Shown in pieces: positions 912-56,440 of a stretch of 64,000 nucleotides of DNA. A program made the position numbers and the translations under genes. This DNA comes from Clostridia bacterium (GTDB taxonomy: Bacteria > Bacillota > Clostridia > Oscillospirales > CAG-272). Within the stretch, counting starts at the first letter, position 1. The number at the start of each line of letters is the position of its first letter. The stretch lies in the NCBI GenBank assembly GCA_017407225.1, contig JAFQWY010000044.1, positions 25-64,024 of the forward strand, read 5' to 3'. Under the pieces are notes generated by a model. It was not told where the DNA came from. It made no database searches and saw only the letters and a program-made list of their open reading frames with translations.

Positions 912-1694
912 TTACCGATCTGCCGCAGAATTCCTGTGAAGCCAGCGTGCAGGATTTTCATGGATATATTTTTTCCGGATCAGATAGTCTTCCTTGTCCC
1001 GGATGATATGTTCGATATAGGATCGCTGAAAGAGATCACACCCGATTTCCCGATTGCAGAACCGCTTGAAAGCCCGGATTACTTCCGGCAGCTTTTCGTT
1101 GGCACGGCGATTTCCGGAGCTTTCATCATCGTTTTGGCAAATTCCGCTGCCCTTTACGCAGTCGATTCCACCTTCGGTAGGGGACGGCGCCCCCGACGTC
1201 CCGGAACCAATACATACGGTAGGGGACGGCGCCCCCGACGTCCCGGAACAAATACATACGGTAGGGGACGGCGCCCCCGACGTCCCGGAACAATCCCTTC
1301 CCGATGTTCCGGCAGACCCTGTAAGTATTACAATCACATGGATATGATCCGGCATGATTACATATTGATCGATCAATACACCGGTGATTTTTTCACTGGC
1401 AAGCAGATGCTTTTCAATGATTTTTCCCGTTTCAGTCAGTTGTACCAGCGGTTTGCCGTAATGCGGGACGTCGAGGGCGCCGTGATTCGGGACGTCGGGG
1501 GCGCCGTAATGTGGGACGTCGAGGGCGCCGTCCCCTACCGAAGTTAACGCGATTGAGGGGGAGGAGGGGAGTTTGATTTCGGACAACCGGATGGCATGAT
1601 TTTTGATGCGTATGGTAACAAAATATGCGCCGGCGGAGCTGTAGTTGTAATGCTCCAGACGCAGTTTTTTTCGCTCGGGAAAGTCTTGTTTCAT
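912..1694 (-). CDS. REP-associated tyrosine transposase (RAYT, IS200/Y1 HUH family) with internal REP-derived tandem insertions
   Basis: The layout matches E. coli RayT/YafM-type proteins: N-terminal YSSAGAYFVTIRIKN, HUH motif VIMPDHIHVIVIL, and C-terminal FQRSYIEHIIRDKEDYLIRKKYIHENPARW carrying the catalytic Tyr. The 260-aa ORF is longer than my recollection of typical RAYTs because of the two repeat arrays. Confidence 0.85.
   Translation of the reverse strand: MKQDFPERKKLRLEHYNYSSAGAYFVTIRIKNHAIRLSEIKLPSSPSIALTSVGDGALDVPHYGAPDVPNHGALDVPHYGKPLVQLTETGKIIEKHLLASEKITGVLIDQYVIMPDHIHVIVILTGSAGTSGRDCSGTSGAPSPTVCICSGTSGAPSPTVCIGSGTSGAPSPTEGGIDCVKGSGICQNDDESSGNRRANEKLPEVIRAFKRFCNREIGCDLFQRSYIEHIIRDKEDYLIRKKYIHENPARWLHRNSAADR
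1177..1302 (-). repeat. Three tandem 42-bp units, each containing the REP core GTAGGGGACGGCGCCCCCGACGTCCC (+ strand), in frame inside the RAYT ORF
   Basis: REP cores lie at 1177-1202, 1219-1244 and 1261-1286. The period is exactly 42 nt (14 codons). On the coding strand they translate as 3 x SGTSGAPSPT(VCI). Confidence 0.95.
1465..1538 (-). repeat. Three tandem 24-bp units of the reverse-complement REP (GGGACGTCGRGGGCGCCGT..), in frame inside the RAYT ORF
   Basis: Units start at 1465, 1489 and 1513, a period of 24 nt (8 codons). Only the third carries the full ...CCCCTAC end. They translate as VGDGALDVPHYGAPDVPNHGALDVPHYG. Confidence 0.95.
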
Positions 1695-9936: not shown

Positions 9937-11907
9937 ATGAATTCTGCTGCCGAATTGTTTTACGAAATCGGTGAACCCTATGCCGCCGGTTTGTTTGAAG
10001 AGCCGGAAAGGGATTATTTCTGCCGCCACGCCATTGCCAATGCGCGGTACCTGGAGTACGTGAAGCCTGCCCTTTACGACGAGGGAGAACTGCTGTACCC
10101 TGCCAAAACCAAGTACGCGCAGTCCGGGTACGCGGTCACGCCCCAGTTTGCCCACACCTACCAGATCGACTGGGGGAAGCTGGAGGCAAAGAGCAAAGAG
10201 GCCGCCGCTCTCATGCGGGAGTTCCATGCACTGAGCCGCAGCCCCGGAGGATGGACCCACGCGGCGCCCAACTACAAACGGATCATCCGTGAGGGGCTGG
10301 ATTCCTATCGTGAGCGGATTCTGGCACAGCCCGAGGGGGACTTCCGGGACGGTCTGCTGGCTCTCGTGGACGGTATGAAGAGCTACATCACCCGGAGCGC
10401 GGAATATCTGAAGTCCGTTGGTGCACCCGGGGAGCTGATCGCGGCTCTCGAAAAGGTGCCCTTCCGCCCGGCTGAGACCTACTACGAAGGGCTTGTGGCG
10501 TGGAACGTGATCTTCTACTTCGACGGCGCGGACAATCTGGGCTCCCTCGACGACGGGCTTGCCCACCTGTACAGAGGCGAGGACTACACCCACATCATCG
10601 GTCAGCTGTTCGACAACATCGATGCGGTTGGCACATGGTCCTGCACGGTGGGACACGTTTACAACGAAATCACCGAACAGGCGCTCCGTGCCATCAAAAA
10701 CCGCCGCAGACCCATGCTGGAGCTGGTGGTGCGGGAGGATATGCCGGAGAAGCTGTGGAAAATCGCCGTGGAAAATATCCGGTGCGGCTCCTGCAATCCG
10801 TCCTTCTACAACGACCGGGGCATCCACGCCATGCTGAAAGACCGGTTTGCCCACATCCCGGACAGCGAACTGGATCTGTTCTGCGGATGCGGATGTACGG
10901 AAACCAATCTGCAGGGACTGACCCGTGCGGGCGGAACCGACGACAACATTCCGCTGGCGCTGATTTTCGAGCGGTATATGCACGCCCACCTGAGAGAAGC
11001 TAAGACGTTTGAAGAATTCTACGAAGGACTGTGCCGCGAGACGGAAAAGGAAATCGACGTCCAGCTGGATGCCATCGTGGAGCGGTACGAGTACATGGCA
11101 AAATACCTGCCCAACCCCATCCGGACCCTGTTCACCGATGACTGCATCGAAAACGGGAAGGACTTCAACGCGGGCGGCGCACGGTACACGTGGACACAGT
11201 CCTCCGACAGCGGGCTGATCAACACCGTTGACTCCCTTCTTGCCATCCGCGAGCTGATCTTTGAGAAAAAGATGTTCACGGCGGATGAATTCCTCGCAAA
11301 GCTGACGGCGGAGGACGAAGCGTTCTACCTTCTCCTGAAGCAGTGCCCCTGCTTCGGTACGGACAACGAGGAGGCCGATGCCCTCGCCGCCGATTATGCC
11401 GGTCGTGTCTACAGCGTGTACCGGAACAAGCCCCCGAAGAGCTTCATTGACGCCTACATCCTCACGGAGCACCAGTTCCTGCGGTACGAAGGTGAGGGCA
11501 GACGGGTTGGCGCAACTCCCGACGGACGGAAGAAAGGCGAGCCCACCTGCGACTCCATTGCCGCCATCCGGGGAAAAGCCGTGGACGGGCCCACCGCGAT
11601 GCTGAAAAGTGCGGCGAGACTGCCCCAGCATCTGGCGGACGGCATCTCCGTGCTGAATCTGACGCTGGCGAAGAATTTTGTGGGAGAAACCCTGTGCTCC
11701 CTGGTGAAATCCTACTTTGCCATGGGCGGCATTCAGGTGCAGGTGACCTGTACTTCCGTTGAGGAGCTGAAGGATGCCATGGTGAACCCCGACAAGCACC
11801 GGGATCTCATCGTCCGGGTGGGCGGATATTCCGATTACTTCGTGAATCTAACCCCGGCGCTCAGACAGACCGTGCTTGAGAGAAATATCCACGAGCTGGG
11901 CGGCTGA
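9937..11907 (+). CDS. Glycyl-radical enzyme (PFL2 / glycerol-dehydratase-like family), short form of about 656 aa
   Basis: The C-terminal glycyl-radical motif LIVRVGGYSDYF, the GATPDGRKKGEP motif and a mid-protein Cys loop FCGCGCTETN (G-C-x-E) are present. The start at 9937 has an AGGAG RBS; the track ORF opens at 9901. Confidence 0.85.
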   Translation: MNSAAELFYEIGEPYAAGLFEEPERDYFCRHAIANARYLEYVKPALYDEGELLYPAKTKYAQSGYAVTPQFAHTYQIDWGKLEAKSKEAAALMREFHALSRSPGGWTHAAPNYKRIIREGLDSYRERILAQPEGDFRDGLLALVDGMKSYITRSAEYLKSVGAPGELIAALEKVPFRPAETYYEGLVAWNVIFYFDGADNLGSLDDGLAHLYRGEDYTHIIGQLFDNIDAVGTWSCTVGHVYNEITEQALRAIKNRRRPMLELVVREDMPEKLWKIAVENIRCGSCNPSFYNDRGIHAMLKDRFAHIPDSELDLFCGCGCTETNLQGLTRAGGTDDNIPLALIFERYMHAHLREAKTFEEFYEGLCRETEKEIDVQLDAIVERYEYMAKYLPNPIRTLFTDDCIENGKDFNAGGARYTWTQSSDSGLINTVDSLLAIRELIFEKKMFTADEFLAKLTAEDEAFYLLLKQCPCFGTDNEEADALAADYAGRVYSVYRNKPPKSFIDAYILTEHQFLRYEGEGRRVGATPDGRKKGEPTCDSIAAIRGKAVDGPTAMLKSAARLPQHLADGISVLNLTLAKNFVGETLCSLVKSYFAMGGIQVQVTCTSVEELKDAMVNPDKHRDLIVRVGGYSDYFVNLTPALRQTVLERNIHELGG

Positions 11908-12013: not shown

Positions 12014-12042
12014 TTGTACAATCCAATTCTTTGTGATATAAT
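12014..12042 (+). promoter_or_regulatory. Sigma-A promoter
   Basis: TTGTAC (12014-12019), 17 nt, TATAAT (12037-12042), with a TGa extended -10. Confidence 0.55.
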
Positions 12043-12088
12043 GAAAATAACTATTTCATAGAACACAAAACAGACAAGGAGCAAACAT

Positions 12089-24288: not shown

Positions 24289-24293
24289 TTTCC

Positions 24294-24319
24294 GGGACGT
24301 CGGGGGCGCCGTCCCCTAC
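24294..24319 (-). repeat. Solo REP (GGGACGTCGGGGGCGCCGTCCCCTAC)
   Basis: On the + strand it reads identically to the 1177-1302 units as read on the RAYT coding strand (i.e. their reverse complement), and it matches the third unit of the 1465-1538 array except at one position. It starts 6 nt after the activase stop. Confidence 0.9.
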
Positions 24320-24716: not shown

Positions 24717-25967
24717 ATGCCTTACGTTCCTTTCACAAAGGAGATGAAGGAAACCCACACCATCCTCATCCCCAATATGCTGCCCATCCACTTCAAGCTG
24801 GTCAGCCGTATTTTGAATAACTTCGGATACAAAACCGAACTTCTCACCACCACCAATGCATCCATCGCGGAAACCGGACTGAAATACGTCCATAACGATA
24901 CCTGCTATCCCGCCATCCTCGTTATCGGACAGATGCTGGAAGCGCTCATGTCCGGGAAATACGATACCAAAAAGTGCGCGCTGATGCTGTTCCAGACCGG
25001 CGGCGGATGCCGTGCTTCCAATTACGTCTCCCTCATGCGGAAGGCTCTGGAAAACGCCGGGATGCCATACGTTCCCGTGCTTCCTCTGGGTCTGGCGGGC
25101 ATCGAAAAGCACCCCGGATTCGAAAACTCCATCCCCATGTACCACCGCATGGTCTATGCCGTTCTCTACGGAGATCTGCTCATGTCCCTTGCCCATCAGG
25201 TGCGCCCCTACGAAATCACAAAGGGAGACGCCGATGCCCTGTGCGACAGGTGGGTGGACCGTCTTGACAGGGAGCTGCAGCATAAGACCATCAATTACGC
25301 GAAAATCAAAAAGAACTACGACGAGATCATCCGGGACTTTGCCGCCGTGCCCAGAGAAAAGCGGGAAGCTGTCAGAGTCGGCATCGTCGGCGAGATTTAT
25401 GTGAAATTCTCCCCCCTCGGCAACAACAATCTGGAAAAATTCCTGGTCAGCGAGGGCGCGGAAGTGGTTCTCCCCGGTCTGGCGGACTTCTTCAACTACT
25501 GCCTGTACAACGGCGTCGTGGACTACCAGCTCTACGGCAAGGGCAAGTTCAGCCATGTGCTGAATCAGATCGGCTTCGACTTCATCTGCGGAAAGCAGAA
25601 GGACCAGATCGCCGCCATCGAAAAGGAAGGTACCTTCCGTGCCATGACTCCCTTCTCCCATACCGTGGAGCTTGCCAAGGGCTATATCGGTTACGGCACC
25701 AAGATGGGCGAAGGATGGCTCCTGACTGCGGAGATGATCGAGCTTGCCGAATCCGGCGTGAAGAACATTGTCTGCACCCAGCCCTTCGGATGCCTGCCCA
25801 ACCACATCTGCGGCAAGGGCATGATGAAGCCCATCAAGGAAAAAATCCCCGGGGTCAACATCGTCGCCATCGACTACGACGCAGGCGCATCTGCGGTCAA
25901 TCAGGAAAACCGCCTGAAGCTGATGCTGGCCGCCGCACGAAGAAACCTGGAACTGTCTGCGGAATAA
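24717..25967 (+). CDS. 2-hydroxyacyl-CoA dehydratase-family / activase-associated (DUF2229-like) protein
   Basis: HNDTCYPAILVIGQMLEAL, FQTGGGCRASNY and QPFGCLPNH are motifs typical of this family. It lies directly after the activase gene. Confidence 0.75.
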   Translation: MPYVPFTKEMKETHTILIPNMLPIHFKLVSRILNNFGYKTELLTTTNASIAETGLKYVHNDTCYPAILVIGQMLEALMSGKYDTKKCALMLFQTGGGCRASNYVSLMRKALENAGMPYVPVLPLGLAGIEKHPGFENSIPMYHRMVYAVLYGDLLMSLAHQVRPYEITKGDADALCDRWVDRLDRELQHKTINYAKIKKNYDEIIRDFAAVPREKREAVRVGIVGEIYVKFSPLGNNNLEKFLVSEGAEVVLPGLADFFNYCLYNGVVDYQLYGKGKFSHVLNQIGFDFICGKQKDQIAAIEKEGTFRAMTPFSHTVELAKGYIGYGTKMGEGWLLTAEMIELAESGVKNIVCTQPFGCLPNHICGKGMMKPIKEKIPGVNIVAIDYDAGASAVNQENRLKLMLAAARRNLELSAE

Positions 25968-29624: not shown

Positions 29625-29691
29625 CTGAATCAGAAGGGGCATTGTAAGCAGAAATTTTCTCGGCAAAATGCAAACGAAGATAAACAAAATT

Positions 29692-29788
29692 GTAGGGGAC
29701 GGCGCCCACGACGTCCCGTTGCGTTGAATTAAGATGTGTTATATATCTGTAATTCTTCGTTTCGGGACGTCGGGGCGCCGTCCCCTAC
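29692..29788. repeat. REPIN-like doublet: forward REP (29692-29717), 46-nt spacer, inverted REP (29764-29788)
   Basis: GTAGGGGACGGCGCCCACGACGTCCC ... GGGACGTCGGGGCGCCGTCCCCTAC. This is the same core as inside the RAYT gene. Confidence 0.9.
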
Positions 29789-29944
29789 CCTTATTTTATG
29801 CATTTTCGCCTTAATGCGACACGCCCTTTTTCCGTTTCCATGATTTTTAAGAAAAATTTCTGCGCCCCGGTCAGATCTGTCACAAAAGCCCCGTTTTTTC
29901 CGTCTAAGGGGTGAAGATCTTCAAATCATAAAGGAGCCGAGACC

Positions 29945-30433
29945 ATGTTTGATGCACAAGCCCTGCTGAGCGGTGACGAAAACGCTCTCGCCGGTGCCGT
30001 GGATGCCCTGTCTCCGGAGCTGTACCGGTATGCGGCGGGGATTCTGCTGAACCGCCACGATGCGGAGGATGCGGTGCAGTGCGCGTTCGCTTCCCTGTGG
30101 CAGCACCGGGAATCCGTGAAAAATCCCGATGCCGTCCGGGCGTATCTCTACCGGTGTACCTACCGGGCCGCGGTGGATATCATCCGGAAAAACCGTCTGT
30201 ATATTCCCGTTCTCAGGCAGGAGGAAAAAGCGCCCCTGTCGGAGGAAATGTGCGCCGCGCTCTCGAAGCTGTCCCCGGTTGAGAGGGCAATCGTTTATGA
30301 GCGCGCCGTGACGGAAACACCCTACGGGGAACTGGCGGAGCATCTGGGACTGAGAGAGGACAACGTGCGGAAGAAATACGAGCGTGCAAGGAAGAAACTG
30401 GCCGCGGCTCTGAAAAAAGGAGGCGAAATCTGA
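29945..30433 (+). CDS. ECF-type RNA polymerase sigma-70 family factor
   Basis: A 162-aa protein. Region 2 is HDAEDAVQCAFASLWQH and region 4 is LSPVERAIVYERAVTETPYGELAEHLGLREDNVRKKYERARKKL. Confidence 0.85.
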   Translation: MFDAQALLSGDENALAGAVDALSPELYRYAAGILLNRHDAEDAVQCAFASLWQHRESVKNPDAVRAYLYRCTYRAAVDIIRKNRLYIPVLRQEEKAPLSEEMCAALSKLSPVERAIVYERAVTETPYGELAEHLGLREDNVRKKYERARKKLAAALKKGGEI

Positions 30434-31200
30434 TGGAAAACAGACTGAAGGAAGAGTTTCTGAAGATGGAGATCCCTGATATGAAGGAGGATATCATGAA
30501 AAACGTGAAAAAAGAAAACGCCCCCCGTGAGAGAAGACGGATCCGCCCCGCTGCCGTGATCGTGATGGCGGCGCTGGTTGTGGTGCTTGCCGTGACGGTC
30601 GGCGCCGCGGCAGGAGGAATGCTGAAGCTGAACCGGGGCGGGAAGATTCTTCTGAATGTGAACGGGGTGGTTGTAAATCCCACCGGTTTTCATCTGGAAG
30701 GAGATGTGAATGTTCCCCTGAGCGAAAAAGCACTGGAAAATATCCGTTCCTATGTTTCTTCAGCCAGACCGGGAGAAGTGAGCAGAAATTTTGAGACGGA
30801 CGACCGTTCCGTGATGGAAGATTTTCTCGATATGCCGCTGGTTCTGCCCCGGAGTCTTGCAGATGAAGCGAATCTGTACCGGCTGTGGGCGAGCGGGGAG
30901 AACGGAGAAGCGGTGTCCATCAGCGTACAGATCGGTACGCCGGGCGATGCGGATGTGATGACGGTTTATCTGAGGGACTTCCCCCGCGTGGTCGGAACCG
31001 CGAGTGAGCCGGATATGGAACAGGCATCCCTCCCCGACGGAACACCCGTGAGCATTGCGGTGGCCGAGAGCAGAAAAGGCGGACTGGTTGCCCATGCGCT
31101 TTACCGGAAAAACGAAGCCGTGTATCACCTGACTGTGACCGGAGAGAACAAAAAGGATCTTCTTGCCGATGTCCGTGCGGTGCTGAGTACGGTGGAATAA
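30433..31200 (+). CDS. Putative single-pass anti-sigma factor or membrane protein
   Basis: The start overlaps the sigma stop (TGATG). One TM segment (AAVIVMAALVVVLAVTVGAAA) follows a charged N-terminal region. Confidence 0.6.
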   Translation: MENRLKEEFLKMEIPDMKEDIMKNVKKENAPRERRRIRPAAVIVMAALVVVLAVTVGAAAGGMLKLNRGGKILLNVNGVVVNPTGFHLEGDVNVPLSEKALENIRSYVSSARPGEVSRNFETDDRSVMEDFLDMPLVLPRSLADEANLYRLWASGENGEAVSISVQIGTPGDADVMTVYLRDFPRVVGTASEPDMEQASLPDGTPVSIAVAESRKGGLVAHALYRKNEAVYHLTVTGENKKDLLADVRAVLSTVE

Positions 31201-31258
31201 TCCGCGGAATAACAAAAATCGGACTGTTGCACTAAGGAGAAAAATGCACAGAAAATTG

Positions 31259-31355
31259 GTAGGGGACGGCGCCCCGACGTCCCGAAACAAAGGATTACAG
31301 ACACAAAATACGTCTTAATCCAATGTCTCGGGACGTCGAGGGCGCCGTCCCCTAC
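31259..31355. repeat. REPIN-like doublet: REP (31259-31283), 46-nt spacer, inverted REP (31330-31355)
   Basis: The spacer is the reverse complement of the 29718-29763 spacer at 34 of 46 positions by hand alignment. The whole element is therefore inverted relative to 29692-29788. Confidence 0.9.
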
Positions 31356-31399
31356 CGTTGTTTGGACTTCAGTTGGTTTTCAGGGCAGCCCCGTTTTCT

Positions 31400-33238
31400 C
31401 TATTTCTTCAGTTTCGTCCGGGTGGGGACGGCATCTTCATCCCCGTCAACCATGGCAAAATCATGCTTCCGGTTTCTGGTTTTGTGGGAGCGGTACAGAA
31501 TCACGCCCACGGCGACAAACTGCAGGAGGATGATGGCGATGATGGCCACGGCAACGGGATTGGAGAAAATCCCGGTCAGGGATCGGCGCTCGGGTTCCTT
31601 CGTGATCTCATCCCCGCAGACGGTGCAGACATGATGCTCCAGCCCGTCCTTTACTTCCTTAAATATATAAGTGTGTCCGAGGGCGGGGGTGGTGCTGTTC
31701 TTCGTTTCGCCGCAGACGGAGCATTTTTCTTTCTTATACCCGTCGGTTCCGCAGGTGGCGCCCGTGCTCATCTGGGTGACCCATGTGTGACCGGGAGCTT
31801 TCAGCACCTCCGTCTTTCCATAACCGCACAGGGAGCAGACGGATTCCCGTTTGCCGTCGGTTTCGCAGGTCGCGGGCGTTTCCGTCACCGTAAACTGATG
31901 CTGGCAGCGGTGGATTTCCTCCGTCATCTCTTCCCCGCAGACCGTGCACCGGGATTTGATATATCCGTCCTTGTCGGGGGTGGCGTCAACGGATGCGGTC
32001 ACTTCCCATGTGTGCCCGGGAGCGGCTTCGGTTTCCGTGTAGCTGTCGGAACAGCGGGTGCAGGTGTAGGTCACACCGCCGTCTTCGGTGCAGGTGGCTG
32101 CGGCGGTGGCGGAGATTTCGTATGTATGGGGCTCGCCGGGGCGGATTTCCTCGATTTCGTCCCCGCAGTTCGCACATCTCTGCAGAAAGCGTCCGTCATG
32201 GCCGTGGGATGCCGGAGTATCCTCGATGATCTGGTAATTGTGCCCTTTGGCGGCGAGGGTTTCCGTGTATTTGTGAACGTCGCAGGCGTATCCCTTGTCG
32301 TTCAGGTTGTAGGAAATCTGGCAGATGTACTCAATGAACCCGTCCGTGGTGCAGGTCGCCGCTGCGGATGCGGTCTGACGCCAGAAGTGCCCGTCCGGAT
32401 TTGCGGCCAGTGCGGTGGTTCCCGTCCGGAGTCCGCAGATGGTACACCGGGAGGACTGCCTGCCGGTCAAGGTACAGCTGGAGGGATAGTCCGTGGTGAC
32501 GGCGGCAAAGCTGTGGGTGTGGCCGTAATAATAGCCGATGATTGCCTCAGCTTCCGCCTTTGCCATGGCGCGGAGGTTTTCATCCTTGTCGATGAGGGCG
32601 GCGTCGGAGGGATTGGAAAGATATCCGTGCTCCACGATAATGGAGGGGATTCCGAACTTGGATGCCCATGTGTTGACGGAATAATAGTCGCTCTTTTTGC
32701 CGTATTTCCATGCGCCGGGCATATCCCACTGCCGCTGGCTGTCCCAGTAGTAGATGCCCAGGGAGTCGCCGGTGTCCTCGCGGGTTTCCACCTTGCCCCG
32801 CTTGATTCCCGTGGATGCCGTGATCCCGTCAAGGAGACGGCCTGCCAGATCCCACGCCGCATAGTCCTCGATGACGGTGACATAGGCCATGTTCCCGTTG
32901 GGGGAGGATTCCGGATTGCTGTTGCAGTGCAGGGACAGGAACAGATCCGCGTCGGTGTTCAGCCCGGTCAGCACCCGGGGAAGGTATTTCAGATAGGTGT
33001 CGTCGGTGCGGGTCATGTACACGTCAAACCGCCCGTCCGCACTCAGCTCGTCGTACAGGTACTGCGCCAGGAGAAGATTGTATTCCTTTTCCGTGCGGAT
33101 TCCCTGTGCGGTGCCGCCGTCGTAGCCCCCGTGCCCGGCGTCAATGACGATGACGGGATTCTCGGCGGATACGGACGCGCAGAGGAGAAATGCCGCTATT
33201 ATAATAAGGAAGAAAAAAACTGCTGTCTTACGGGTCAT
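31400..33238 (-). CDS. N-acetylmuramoyl-L-alanine amidase (Amidase_3) with Cys-rich repeat region and C-terminal membrane anchor
   Basis: A signal peptide is followed by VIVIDAGHGGYDGG ... LFLSLHCNS. Then come repeated ATC.TDG.....C..CG....GH.W modules, and a TM segment AVAIIAIILLQFVAVGVILY with a basic tail. Confidence 0.85.
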   Translation of the reverse strand: MTRKTAVFFFLIIIAAFLLCASVSAENPVIVIDAGHGGYDGGTAQGIRTEKEYNLLLAQYLYDELSADGRFDVYMTRTDDTYLKYLPRVLTGLNTDADLFLSLHCNSNPESSPNGNMAYVTVIEDYAAWDLAGRLLDGITASTGIKRGKVETREDTGDSLGIYYWDSQRQWDMPGAWKYGKKSDYYSVNTWASKFGIPSIIVEHGYLSNPSDAALIDKDENLRAMAKAEAEAIIGYYYGHTHSFAAVTTDYPSSCTLTGRQSSRCTICGLRTGTTALAANPDGHFWRQTASAAATCTTDGFIEYICQISYNLNDKGYACDVHKYTETLAAKGHNYQIIEDTPASHGHDGRFLQRCANCGDEIEEIRPGEPHTYEISATAAATCTEDGGVTYTCTRCSDSYTETEAAPGHTWEVTASVDATPDKDGYIKSRCTVCGEEMTEEIHRCQHQFTVTETPATCETDGKRESVCSLCGYGKTEVLKAPGHTWVTQMSTGATCGTDGYKKEKCSVCGETKNSTTPALGHTYIFKEVKDGLEHHVCTVCGDEITKEPERRSLTGIFSNPVAVAIIAIILLQFVAVGVILYRSHKTRNRKHDFAMVDGDEDAVPTRTKLKK

Positions 33239-33492: not shown

Positions 33493-36400
33493 ATGAAGAA
33501 GACTCTTTCTCTGATTCTGGCCCTTCTGATGTCCGTTTCTACCGCAGTTGTTGCATTTGCAGAAGAACCTGCAATTGACGATACTGTTGAAGAAGTAGTG
33601 ACTGAAGAAGTTGTTGCTGGCCCTTACGATGACGCGATCAAGTATCTTGGTCACTACGGCATCTACAAGGGCGTTTCTGCTGACGACCTTGCTGCTGAAG
33701 ACGATGTAAACCGTTATCAGATGGCTCTGTTCGCAGCACGTCTCTCTACCGGTTGGGTAGAAGATGAAAAGTGGGAAGACGGTCCCCAGAATTCTTCCGA
33801 ATTCACTGACCTCGCTGGCACCCCCGCAGAAAACTACTACGGCGCACTCTCCTACGTAAACCAGATGGGCATCATCGAAGGTTACGGCGACGGTACTTAT
33901 GGTCCTCTCAACGGCATCAAGTATCAGGACGCTCTCACCATCGTTACCCGTACCCTCGGCTACAAGAACCTGGAATACCCCTGGGGTTACATCCAGAAGG
34001 CTGTTGAACTCGGCCTCACCGAAGGTGTTGTTGACGTAGCTTACACTGACGCTCTCACCCGCGGTGAAGTAGCTCAGATCATCTACAACGCACTGTTCGC
34101 AGAAACCAAGAACGGTTCCACCCTCGGCCTCGATTCCTTCGGCATCGAATTCGCATGGGAAAACGTTATCATCACCGCTTCCGATAAGGACGTATTCGGT
34201 GTTAACGACAAGGCTCCCGCTGGCTTCGTTGGCTTCCAGCTGATCGAAGATGGCGAACTTGACGATACCGTTTGGTACGCAAAGGCTTCCGACTTCAACC
34301 TCGAAGGCCACGACGACGAACTCGCAGTTGGCGCATCCTGCAAGGTATTCTTTGAAAAGGACGCTGATTCCGAACTCGTTAAGATCATCGACTACAAGAC
34401 CAACTTCGTTGAAACCATTTGGAACGAAGGCAAGACCGATGACGAAGGCGTTGCTGTAGAAGCTTACGCTATCGACACCGCTCTCTCCACCGAATACTCC
34501 CTCGTTACCAAGTACTCCAAGACCTATCTTGGCGGCGCTTCCAACGCAGTTCGCGATGAAATCATCGTTGTTGACGCTCTCGGCGGTATCGCTGAACTGA
34601 CCTATGTTGGCTCCAACTACGGCGTTGACATGGAAACCGGCGACATCGTTATCTACGAAACCGACGAAGACGGTGTTACCACCGTTAAGGAAATCGTTTG
34701 GTACTACAACGCTCTTCTCGAATCCTACTACAAGATCATTCTTGACAAGGACAACGACGAAATCGGCGTTAAGTACATGGACGAAAAGGCTGAAGCTGAA
34801 CTGCTGAAGGCTATCGAAGATGCAGCTTACGAATACGTTGTAACCTACAACAAGGGCTTTGCTACTGCTGTTGGTTCCGTTGACGCTAAGTCCGCATACG
34901 CTTCCCTCTCTGTTTACAATGTAAACGGCAAGGCATACGGCATCTACGAAGAATACAAGTTCGGTTACTTCGCTAACGGCAAGACCGACAGATGCTCCTG
35001 CGATGGCAACCCCACCAGAGCTACCTACACCATCTCTTCCAGATTCAACTACAACGTTGCTAAGGAAGTAGAAGTTACCACTCCTGCATCCTTCGACCAG
35101 ATCGTTGAAGGCGAATGCAAGCACGGTACTGCTTGGATCAACCCCGACTTCGCTGCTAACCTCCAGGAAGACGGCACCTACGCTAACGGCTACGTAATCT
35201 ACTCTGCTGACGCTCAGACCGGCGAAATCAAGATCGTTAAGTACATCAACGATTGCGAAGACGTTGACACCTACGTTGGCAAGGGCACCATCAAGTCCTT
35301 CTCTGTTAACGACGAATACGTTGTAATCAACGGCGAAAAGCTCACCTTCAACTATGACAACCTCGAAGGCGCTGGCGTTGTTAACGTAAACAAGAACTCC
35401 ACCACCAAGGCTAACTACTCCGATCTCCTCCGTGACTACTTCAACCAGTATGTTGAATACGTTGTTGTAGACGGCGAAATCGTTTACATGACCATTCTCG
35501 GTGGTTCCACCACCAACCTGTTCGTTGTTGAAAAGTACGCTGGTATCTCTTCTGACGGTTACATCGTAGTTGACGGTTACTACACCGCTGCTGCTACCGA
35601 ACTCACCAGAATCCGCGTTGCTTCCTACAACAACAACTACACTGGCGATCCCTTCTACTACATGAACCCCGATAAGGCTGCTGCTGCATTCACCAAGGGT
35701 GCTATCTACGCAGTATCCTCCACTGAAGAAGACGGTTCCGTTAACGTTCAGCTTGCTGGTAAGTTTGGTGACAATGGTGACTACACCATCGTTAACAAGC
35801 AGTACGTAGCTCTCGGCGATGCTATCAAGATCACCACCGAAAACGCTAAGGACGGCTACCTCACCGTTAACTCCAAGGTTGTTCGCGACAAGGCTTACAC
35901 CTACATCCTCATCGGCGCTGAAGACAGAAATGGCTTCGCTCCCATCGCAGTTTACTCCGGTAAGGTTTCCGCTACCGACTGGTGGCTGGAAGGTACCCTT
36001 ATCAACGACGGCAATGACAGCGTATACCTCGTTGTTAACGCTGACTGGGCAGGCTTCGGCCGCGACATGGGCACCACTGGTCTCGTAGCTCTCCTCGGCG
36101 ACTTCTACTGGACTGCTGACTTCGACGGCACCACCGCTGAAGACTGGTACCTCCTCGGCGCAGCTGAATACGAAGTTGAAGTATTCGACTTCTACACTGC
36201 TTCCAACATCCTCGTTTCCGCTACCAACCTCGACCTCGAAGACGGCTACCTGTACAGAACCATCGACAATACTCTTGTATATGACGATGAAATCTCTGCT
36301 ACCAAGCTTTACGACGAACTCGTTGAAGGTTACCTCGACACCGACGCTGGTTCCGCAGACTACCTGTTCGACGAACTCGAACTGACCGCTGCTAACATCG

Positions 36401-37426: not shown

Positions 37427-39157
37427 ATGACGAATAAATCAAACTTTTTCAAGGATAATCCCGGATGGATGGCGGTTTTCGCCGTCTGCATCGTGATTCT
37501 TATCGTTTACGGCTGCTGGTACGCCGGTCATCCGCGCCTTTCCTTTGATTCCATGGGCGGTCCCGAGGTGGAAACCCAGATTGTTCCCAAGGGTGAGAAG
37601 ACCCTGCCGCCTCTTGCAAGCGAGCTGTCCTATGAGGGGTTTTTCCTGGAAGGCTGGTACACCGACGAAACCTTCACCAACCGCTACGACGGTGAACCTC
37701 TGGAACAGAGCATGACCGTGTACGCAAACTGGGTTCCTTCCCGGCATACCGTCACCTTCCATACACCCCAGGGCAAGCTCACCGGAGATACCGTGTTCAC
37801 GGTAAATTACGGCGAGGCGCTGGACGATCTGCCGGGCATCCGACACGAAACCTATCAGCTTGAAGGCTGGTATCTGGACGAAGCCTGCACGATCGCCTAT
37901 CACCCCGGCGTGACAGAGATCACAAACGACACGGACGTGTACGCCAATATGGTGCTCCCCACTTCCATGGAAGATGACCTGGTCGCTCCCGTGATCTACA
38001 TTGACGCCAAGGGCAAGGGCGTTGACAAGCACGAATACGTGAAGTGCACCGTCAACATTGATTCCGACAACGAAAAATTCGCGAAAACCAATCTGAAGGC
38101 ACAGATCCGCGGACGGGGCAACTCCACGTGGGGTTACTACGAAAAGAAGCCGTACCGCCTGAAGTTCGATGACAAAATCGACCTGTTCGGCATGGGCAAA
38201 GCCCGCGACTGGATCCTGCTGGCCAATACCGTTGACATGGCGATGCTCCGCAACCTGACCGTGTACCGCATGGCGCAGCAGTTTGAAGGATGCCGCTACA
38301 CCACCGACTGCGAATTCGTCCACGTCTATCTGAACGATGAGTACCTCGGCCTGTATCTGGCTGTGGAACAGGTGGAAGAGGGCAAGAACCGCGTGGAAAT
38401 CGGCGACGGTACCGACGGAAACGGCAATGCTGCGGCTCCGGAAGACACCGGATTCCTCCTTGAAGTGGGCGGTGCCGGAAGCTGGGGTGACTGGGGATTC
38501 CAGCCCAAGTCCTACAAGCGGATTTCCGCCCCCTACACCATCATCAAGAGCCCCGAATCCGACGTGATGACCTTCGAGCAGTTCCAGTACATCGAAAATT
38601 ACTTCGATCAGGTGCAGAAGGCCATCTCCAAGGACGATTTCGATACCCTCTGCGAGCTGGTTGACATCCAGTCCTTCGTGGATTCCTTTATCTGCACCCA
38701 GTACATCCTTGCCGGCGACATGGGCTACTGCTACTTCGCCTACAAGGAGCCGGGCGGCAAGCTGTTCCTCGGCCCCCTCTGGGACTATGACCAGGCGGCA
38801 GGATGTTCCGAGCACGGCGGCAGCAACTACGAAGGCTACGCGGCGGCATCTCCCCACTCCTGGTACCAGAAGCTGATCGTCAACGACCAGTTCCGCGCAC
38901 TGGTGGTGGAAAGCTGGATGGAACACTACGACTACATCCACGGTATCCCGGATATGCTCCGTGAAATCGCGGCAACCTATCGGGCGGATATCGACCTGAA
39001 CTACGAGCGCTGGGAAGGCTTCCTCGGCTCCTATCAGTGGAGAAGCATTGAACCCCTGATCGGAATGACCGAATACGACGACCACGTTGACTATCTGATC
39101 ACATGGCTGGACAACCGTGTGGACTGGATGGAACGGAATTTGGGAATCAAAGAATAA
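37427..39157 (+). CDS. CotH-family protein with N-terminal membrane anchor and Listeria-Bacteroides-type repeats
   Basis: The TM segment is WMAVFAVCIVILIVYGCWYA. Two repeats of the form F.GWYTDE....Y......VYANW follow. The CotH core is IRGRGNSTWGYYEKKPYRLKFD ... LGPLWDYDQA. Confidence 0.75.
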   Translation: MTNKSNFFKDNPGWMAVFAVCIVILIVYGCWYAGHPRLSFDSMGGPEVETQIVPKGEKTLPPLASELSYEGFFLEGWYTDETFTNRYDGEPLEQSMTVYANWVPSRHTVTFHTPQGKLTGDTVFTVNYGEALDDLPGIRHETYQLEGWYLDEACTIAYHPGVTEITNDTDVYANMVLPTSMEDDLVAPVIYIDAKGKGVDKHEYVKCTVNIDSDNEKFAKTNLKAQIRGRGNSTWGYYEKKPYRLKFDDKIDLFGMGKARDWILLANTVDMAMLRNLTVYRMAQQFEGCRYTTDCEFVHVYLNDEYLGLYLAVEQVEEGKNRVEIGDGTDGNGNAAAPEDTGFLLEVGGAGSWGDWGFQPKSYKRISAPYTIIKSPESDVMTFEQFQYIENYFDQVQKAISKDDFDTLCELVDIQSFVDSFICTQYILAGDMGYCYFAYKEPGGKLFLGPLWDYDQAAGCSEHGGSNYEGYAAASPHSWYQKLIVNDQFRALVVESWMEHYDYIHGIPDMLREIAATYRADIDLNYERWEGFLGSYQWRSIEPLIGMTEYDDHVDYLITWLDNRVDWMERNLGIKE

Positions 39158-56014: not shown

Positions 56015-56440
56015 ATGATTATTGTAGGACTTGATTTCGGCGATGCCAGAACCGGGGTTGCCGTGTGCGATAAATATGAAATGATGGCCACCGACGCGGG
56101 ATGCGTGGCTGCGGACAGCTATAAGAAGGCTCTCGCCGCCGTTGCGGAACGGGTGAAGGAGCTGAAGGCGGAGCTGATCGTGGTGGGAAACCCCATCAAC
56201 ATGGACGGCTCCCAGGGATTCCGCAGTGAAAAGTGCAAAGCTTTCGCAAGGGAGCTGTCGGAGCTGACCGGAATTCCCGCGGAAATGTACGACGAGCGGC
56301 TGACCACGGTTTCCGCTCACAAGATTCTGAATGACAACAACGTACGGGGCAAGAAGCGCAAGGCGACGGTGGATACCCTGTCCGCGCGTCTGATTCTGGA
56401 GGACTACCTGACCGTACGGAAGAACAGAGGTACGGTATGA
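56015..56440 (+). CDS. ruvX: Holliday junction resolvase-like nuclease RuvX/YqgF
   Basis: MIIVGLDFGDARTGVAV... ELIVVGNPINMDGS ... DERLTTV are canonical YqgF motifs. Confidence 0.9.
   Translation: MIIVGLDFGDARTGVAVCDKYEMMATDAGCVAADSYKKALAAVAERVKELKAELIVVGNPINMDGSQGFRSEKCKAFARELSELTGIPAEMYDERLTTVSAHKILNDNNVRGKKRKATVDTLSARLILEDYLTVRKNRGTV

Follow-up and report, generated by a model that had tools for sequence, protein, structure and literature searches.

The stretch of DNA analyzed here (the window) comprises 64,000 nt of contig JAFQWY010000044.1 from the Clostridia bacterium assembly GCA_017407225.1 and contains two inverted doublets of a repetitive extragenic palindromic (REP) sequence, elements A and B, that bracket a gene pair encoding a sigma factor and its putative anti-sigma factor. 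Element A follows a SIS operon on the plus strand and element B follows an amidase gene on the minus strand, both lying outside the sigma module; because the SIS operon and the amidase gene converge on the module, A and B are necessarily inverted relative to each other. The original prediction had taken this arrangement for a composite mobilisable or recombination-prone cassette. Our comparisons indicate instead, from sequence, that A and B are ordinary intergenic repeat insertions and not the ends of a movable gene cassette.

Anatomy of the repeats and the enclosed module

Element A occupies positions 29692–29788 on the plus strand and consists of a 26-nt REP (GTAGGGGACGGCGCCCACGACGTCCC), a 46-nt partly palindromic spacer, and a 25-nt inverted REP (110.6 bits against our covariance model R1). 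Element B (31259–31355, minus strand; 111.4 bits against R1 on that strand) is its mirror image, with parts of 25, 46, and 26 nt. Without gaps, A matches the reverse complement of B at 84 of 97 positions and B in direct orientation at only 51 of 97, and the spacers are reverse-complementary at exactly the 34 of 46 positions originally counted by hand. The 97-nt dimensions, coordinates, homology, and opposite orientation given in the original prediction were therefore borne out, as was its observation that the 1470-nt segment between the doublets (29789–31258) holds only the sigma and putative anti-sigma genes. The spacer alignment scores 19, whereas 2000 shuffles averaged −2.8 and never exceeded 11, and the REP arms are far better kept than the spacers (2 differences in 51 nt versus 12 in 46).

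Two inverted REPs around a spacer (26 + 46 + 25 nt in A, 25 + 46 + 26 nt in B) are the defining arrangement of a REPIN, a REP doublet forming a hairpin, and each doublet is predicted to fold, spacer included, as a single 97-nt hairpin (as DNA, −42.5 kcal/mol, z −12 for A and −44.9 kcal/mol, z −14 for B). This hairpin is kept across six distinct copies of the element, with 41 pairs, seven of which show compensatory changes. Taken alone, each REP has GTAG followed by a 6-bp hairpin, the GTAG 5′ of an imperfect palindrome that marks REPs of the class associated with REP-associated tyrosine transposases (RAYTs), and all 11 full REPs start with (G)GTAGGGGAC before the 6-bp stem. The outer edges of the two doublets show no direct repeats, and there are no target-site duplications. 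An Rfam search returned no known RNA family, only sub-threshold matches to generic hairpins of the miRNA-precursor kind.

The homology between A and B runs inward past the doublets, where positions 29789–29838 align with the reverse complement of 31207–31258 (score 20, against a shuffle maximum of 17). These additional ∼50 nt mean that the inverted repeats are ∼147 nt long rather than 97, with an identity of about 83% over 130 nt. The tail of element A (29789–29838, plus strand) is a small, degenerate hairpin that belongs to the GGGCTGTYGCA...TGCRACAGCCC terminator family, ends in CCCTTTTTCC and pairs with an arm to the left of the doublet, lengthening the hairpin. The tail of element B (31207–31258, minus strand) forms a small hairpin from CTGTTGCA and TGCACAG, followed on the minus strand by GATTTTTGTTATT, that is, downstream of the 3′ end of the amidase gene. 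In both copies the order from the outer gene is the same, namely stop codon, long REPIN hairpin, small hairpin, and T-run, so that tail and T-run lie on the side away from the outer gene. A stem with TTTTT after A and GATTTTT after the tail of B can be seen in the sequence and may mark intrinsic, bidirectional terminators.

The left arm of element A (29636–29691, plus strand) completes a hairpin of ∼200 nt that stands directly after the SIS gene stop (29624) and begins 12 nt past it. Left arm, doublet, and tail together (29625–29850) are predicted to fold as RNA at −102.5 kcal/mol (z −11.1) with an outer stem and a TTTTT end. The arm belongs to the repeat itself, as it is conserved in a copy found in another genome (G019, contig C80, described below). 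Between the outer flank of B and the left arm of A the similarity was not significant. We also considered a host terminator split in two, with 29636–29691 and 31356–31405 as its hairpin halves and the cassette in its loop; the similarity of the proposed halves was 9.0 against a shuffle mean of 8.7, and the conservation of the arm elsewhere likewise led us to reject this idea.

The tails of A and B are related to a family of free, terminator-like hairpins of ∼45 nt, present in six copies in the genome and built of an A-run, GGGGCTGTTGCA, the loop CTAAGGAGAAAAATCCGAAA, TGCAACAGCCCC, and a T-run. One copy lies in the window at 1720–1762, just upstream of the start codon of the RAYT-like gene introduced in the next section, and the other five lie on contigs C197 (∼1506–1550), C258 (∼12015–12062), C326 (∼11551–11592), C327 (∼621–665), and C335 (∼56039–56088) of the same assembly (G000).

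The enclosed module begins with the gene for an extracytoplasmic function (ECF)-type sigma-70 family factor of 162 aa (29945–30433, plus strand; Pfam Sigma70_r2 and r4_2; TIGR02937, E 1.8e-22). Its stop is overlapped by 1 nt by the start of the next open reading frame (ORF), which encodes a putative membrane anti-sigma factor of 255 aa with a single transmembrane segment (30433–31200, plus strand). Profile matches of this protein to anti-sigma factors are weak and below cut-off (E 0.0018); its putative role is suggested by where it lies here and by the fact that in four related genomes (G002, G049, G043, and G044) it likewise comes immediately after the sigma gene. An alignment of the upstream regions from these four and the present genome defines a conserved region at 29852–29944 (plus strand) with an ECF-type promoter-like motif (TGTCACA-N16-CGTCTAA), a palindrome (GAAGATCTTC), and a ribosome-binding site. 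The homology among the module upstream regions starts at ∼29852, which places element A next to the module and not within it. Motif and palindrome occupy the segment 29868–29930; the palindrome, GTGAAGATCTTCAAA, lies between the motif and the ribosome-binding site of the sigma gene and is perfectly conserved in all five genomes. Judged from these sequence features, motif and palindrome may represent an autoregulated ECF promoter together with an operator or leader element. A foreign origin of the module was considered as well and not adopted, its GC content being the same as that of its neighbours.

The REP family and its copies elsewhere

The window also contains a RAYT-like Y1 transposase gene (912–1694, minus strand; 260 aa), matched by NF047646 below the cut-off (E 1.4e-12; 47.7 bits against a cut-off of 80) and single-copy by tblastn in the 3.96-Mb, 375-contig assembly. 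The in-frame arrays inside the RAYT ORF are built of the same GTAG-headed, hairpin-forming REP as A and B, and it is this shared REP that upholds the earlier proposal of a link between the doublets and the RAYT-internal arrays. The further suggestion that the start of the doublet spacer resembles the inter-REP spacer inside the RAYT gene held only in part: the likeness amounts to a short stretch 3′ of the REP, G(G)A(A/G)A, which most REP copies share, and goes no further.

Outside the RAYT gene the assembly holds two intact doublets, one degenerate short doublet, and three solo REPs, one of which lies in the window at 24293–24319 (minus strand), 5 nt past the stop of the upstream gene. In total there are ∼14 REP copies, 10 of them within 31 kb on this contig. 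The numerous, over-represented population usual for REPINs is not seen in these 375 contigs. The degenerate doublet (C285:4674–4745) has a spacer of ∼19 nt and a decayed second REP.

Copies of the whole element occur in other genomes. On contig C80 of G019, a 195-nt copy, 82% identical to 29643–29837 and including both left arm and tail, stands between unrelated genes; the left arm that it shares with A measures 49 nt. A scan of 185,579 species genomes with the conserved spacer-REP pattern recovered this copy again and four more, which come from rectum metagenome-assembled genomes (MAGs) of sheep, roe deer, and goat and from a Eubacteriales MAG. Each of these five copies is solo and has the tail, and convergent ORFs flank four of them. 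Over the doublet, identity is 86% between A and B, 88% between A and the G019 copy, and 88% between B and the sheep copy; A and B are thus no closer to each other than to the copies of other species. A second locus in G019 (C82, ∼1430–1575; L014) has outer arms as in element A around a collapsed perfect palindrome, TAGGGGACGTCGCGGCGACGTCCCCTA, which looks like the footprint of a REPIN excision or of a hairpin deletion.

A sister family is far more numerous in G009, where a covariance model of the doublet found ∼30 loci with doublets of 137 nt in a repeated unit of ∼220 nt. Its REP stem has co-varied to GTAGGGAGCGGCGCCCCCGTCGCTCC (GGGAGCG/CGCTCC, compared with GGGGACG/CGTCCC here). On contig C89 (12300–32950; L094, L095), six copies fill consecutive intergenic spacers within 20 kb, three of them 97–98% identical, and an inverted pair at 98% identity brackets one unrelated gene of 930 aa. 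Bracketing thus stems from local accumulation of these elements and is tied to no particular cargo. No RAYT was detected within the 30 kb of this contig that were examined. The same region carries a second repeat family of ∼340–380 nt, 72–86% identical and in both orientations (10733–11127, 25172–25582, 34453–34873, and 37577–37942).

Mobility of the REPIN itself, as distinct from that of the module, is apparent in several places: the G019 C80 copy sits in an unrelated context, copies in G009 are 98% identical, the C82 locus has a collapsed palindrome within the same arms, and element B is absent from an orthologous junction in G046, a relative considered in the next section.

The module in relatives and within the species

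Among 53 genomes of the genus, the anti-sigma protein occurs in six, i.e. in five besides the present one, and the module is found in at least three contexts other than the one here. G002 and G049 have a common context with a nucleosidase gene upstream, and G043 and G044 have others. In all four of these genomes, neither REPs nor inverted repeats flank the module, which has ordinary local terminators only. A synteny comparison of this kind had been proposed with the original prediction, and its outcome is that the sigma/anti-sigma pair is not tied to REPIN boundaries.

The gene order on the right-hand side is preserved in G046, with an anti-sigma homologue, the amidase (81% aa identity), a large S-layer-like gene, and the next gene following as here. 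The spacer between anti-sigma and amidase genes has homologous edges in G046, including the outer edge of the B tail (AACAAAAAT..GACTG), and encloses a plain bidirectional terminator and no REPIN, from which it follows that the right-hand junction exists without element B. G046 has the same REP family at other sites; one of these (C221:2852–2982; L042) is a doublet with the same REP around an unrelated spacer of ∼80 nt, and REPIN spacers in the genus are therefore diverse. The G046 contig with the anti-sigma homologue (C376, 1–900; L035) has no sigma gene in the 130 nt upstream of that homologue, up to the contig start, and the 3′ end of the homologue looks frame-shifted relative to the homologous stop region. 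These features could reflect real decoupling or a MAG artefact.

On the left-hand side, each relative examined has a different gene after the conserved SIS operon, so that a changing context is the background state in the genus. No empty site with the SIS operon adjoining the amidase gene was found among the 53 genomes.

Within the species, we compared the window with nine metagenome contigs identified by exact-protein look-up, which are 99.3–100% identical to it and between them take in both doublets; L060 reaches across A, the module, and B, while B is also spanned by L068 and L069, and A by L061, L062, and L065. All nine are colinear and in one orientation, with no inversion and no excision, and the presence/absence or orientation polymorphism expected of a composite transposon was not seen among them. 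Several of these contigs end inside the hairpins. The only variation found was a 10-nt deletion within the left REP of A in one contig (L065, from ENA ERZ28654157; CCCACGACGT, equivalent to window positions 29705–29714), which may be real microvariation or an assembly artefact at a palindrome. Metagenome contig scans with the left flank of A and with half of the doublet gave no match in either case.

Origin and role of the bracketing repeats

We regard A and B as probably two old REPIN-plus-terminator units, placed independently and maintained separately, one at the 3′ end of the SIS operon and the other at that of the amidase gene. Both would belong to the REP family tied to the single RAYT of the genome, 28 kb upstream, and published REPIN and Escherichia coli REP data, taken together with the anatomy described above, suggest how they came to be there and what they may do. 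The element would have spread by RAYT-mediated single-strand cleavage and joining and would tend to pile up in adjacent intergenic spacers, with copies close to one another and to the RAYT gene, hence the closeness of A and B. Once in place, the hairpins would act as terminators or 3′-end stabilisers and shield the self-promoted ECF operon from read-through.

Several points weigh against this account. Just 1.47 kb separates the two doublets that alone are intact in the assembly, which is very unlikely under random placement and may point to a shared local origin of the pair or to some link with the locus; local spread, we infer, accounts for this closeness qualitatively. The assembly is in 375 contigs, and repeat copies may be missing from it. 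A junction of the SIS operon with the sigma gene lacking element A was not found in any relative. The tail may either travel with the REPIN or be its preferred target. Finally, a simple promoter/terminator scan called neither element a terminator, the stems exceeding the limits of that scan.

The repeats could also be the product of a single local duplication, in which, long ago, a hop or a copying event brought one element into the next suitable spacer in inverted orientation, after which the two copies diverged. This is a variant of the account just given that differs in history only, and one that the closeness of A and B in a genome with almost no other copies would suit, as would the recent local proliferation in G009, where copies in both orientations are 98% identical. 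We nevertheless think it unlikely, given that the G019 copy has the same 49-nt left arm as A and is 88% identical to it, whereas B falls slightly closer to its sheep and Eubacteriales counterparts; the margin of that grouping is ∼2 nt in 95 and is not decisive.

A composite mobile cassette, in which a RAYT-type enzyme moves the sigma/anti-sigma cargo as one unit with its ∼147-nt inverted ends (REPIN plus tail), would explain why such ends stand directly outside a self-contained, promoter-to-stop module, why the only intact doublets of the assembly flank it, and why the module is scattered through the genus (6 of 53 genomes), in at least four contexts. Several observations weigh against it. The module resides in four relatives without REPs or flanking inverted repeats, the right-hand junction exists in G046 without a REPIN, and the change of context seen for the module is equally the rule downstream of the SIS operon. 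The ends of such a unit should be nearly identical, but A and B, at 86%, are no more alike than either is to its counterparts in other species. Those five counterparts are all solo, and the same ends with cargo were found neither at a second location nor in other genomes. Invariant same-species contigs and a GC content no different from the surroundings add to a case that leaves the cassette very improbable, and it is on these grounds (REP-free modules, the G046 junction, invariant contigs, solo copies, and clustering in G009) that we depart from the original prediction. The two findings that the prediction had itself named as speaking against it, a locus without variability and no association of REPINs with cassette boundaries, are essentially what was observed. 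We give as little credence to a broader version, in which arm, REPIN, and tail (∼150–220 nt) form a portable terminator spread locally by the RAYT, inverted pairs occasionally capture and move the genes between them, and the ECF module arrived as REPIN-bounded cargo while the REPIN-free modules elsewhere are older residents. An invertible segment seems more improbable still. Inverted repeats of ∼147 nt at 84–86% identity and 1.37 kb apart could in principle flip the 1.4-kb module and alter read-through from its neighbours, yet nine independent metagenome contigs (99.3–100% identical) all have one orientation, the module has its own conserved promoter, so that a flip would alter little, repeats diverged by 14% are a poor substrate for homologous recombination, and no recombinase gene adjoins the module.

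Comparison with known systems places A and B among REPINs rather than transposon ends. Like the REPINs of Pseudomonas fluorescens SBW25 (PMC3337134), they consist of two inverted REPs around a hairpin-forming spacer, have a REP specific to a single-copy RAYT gene and REP arms better conserved than the spacers, and are flanked by A/T runs that suggest use as terminators; in SBW25, REP doublets with such flanks were read as co-opted terminators (Bertels & Rainey 2011, PMC3337134), and the collapsed long palindrome in G019 resembles the excision footprints published for that strain (PMC3337134). Unlike SBW25, the host here is an uncultured gut Clostridia bacterium of Oscillospiraceae type, its assembly has two intact doublets and not hundreds, REPs also occur in frame inside the RAYT gene, and the conserved unit extends over ∼150–220 nt in total, taking in an asymmetric ∼50-nt tail and in some copies also a second arm.

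With the REPs and bacterial interspersed mosaic elements (BIMEs) of E. coli and their TnpA_REP, the element shares the GTAG 5′ of an imperfect palindrome and its sites in 3′ untranslated regions (3′ UTRs) and between convergent genes. It differs in having a REP of unrelated sequence, in lacking a mosaic BIME organisation, and in that its putative RAYT matches NF047646 below the cut-off (47.7 versus 80 bits). A preprint on E. coli describes REPs there as 3′ UTR terminators and stabilisers (bioRxiv 10.64898/2026.03.23.713779), and the terminator or mRNA-stabiliser role proposed for them is the one we suggest, by analogy, for A and B.

Composite transposons and mobile insertion cassettes also have inverted terminal repeats bracketing a short self-contained gene module. 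At the present locus, in contrast, the ends have diverged (86%) and recur at no second location, the cargo exists elsewhere without them, no presence/absence polymorphism was found, and no direct repeats can be seen at the outer edges. The Correia elements of Neisseria are miniature inverted-repeat transposable elements (MITEs), hairpin-forming intergenic repeats of 100–200 nt that can supply terminator function. What sets A and B apart from Correia-type MITEs is that their ends are HUH/Y1-type REP hairpins, not DDE terminal inverted repeats, and that they lack target-site duplications.

REP/RAYT systems have been described mostly in Proteobacteria. The present case adds a REPIN-type element from Oscillospiraceae-like gut Clostridia, with a terminator-like tail as part of its conserved unit, and the co-varying stem changes between its sister families could help to pair RAYTs with their targets. 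Mobile repeats that bracket a gene module are often read as a mobile cassette; at this locus the bracketing is better explained as a by-product of repeats settling in neighbouring terminator regions. The locus may thus serve as a worked negative example, for which the clustered copies in G009 give a usable base rate of bracketing.

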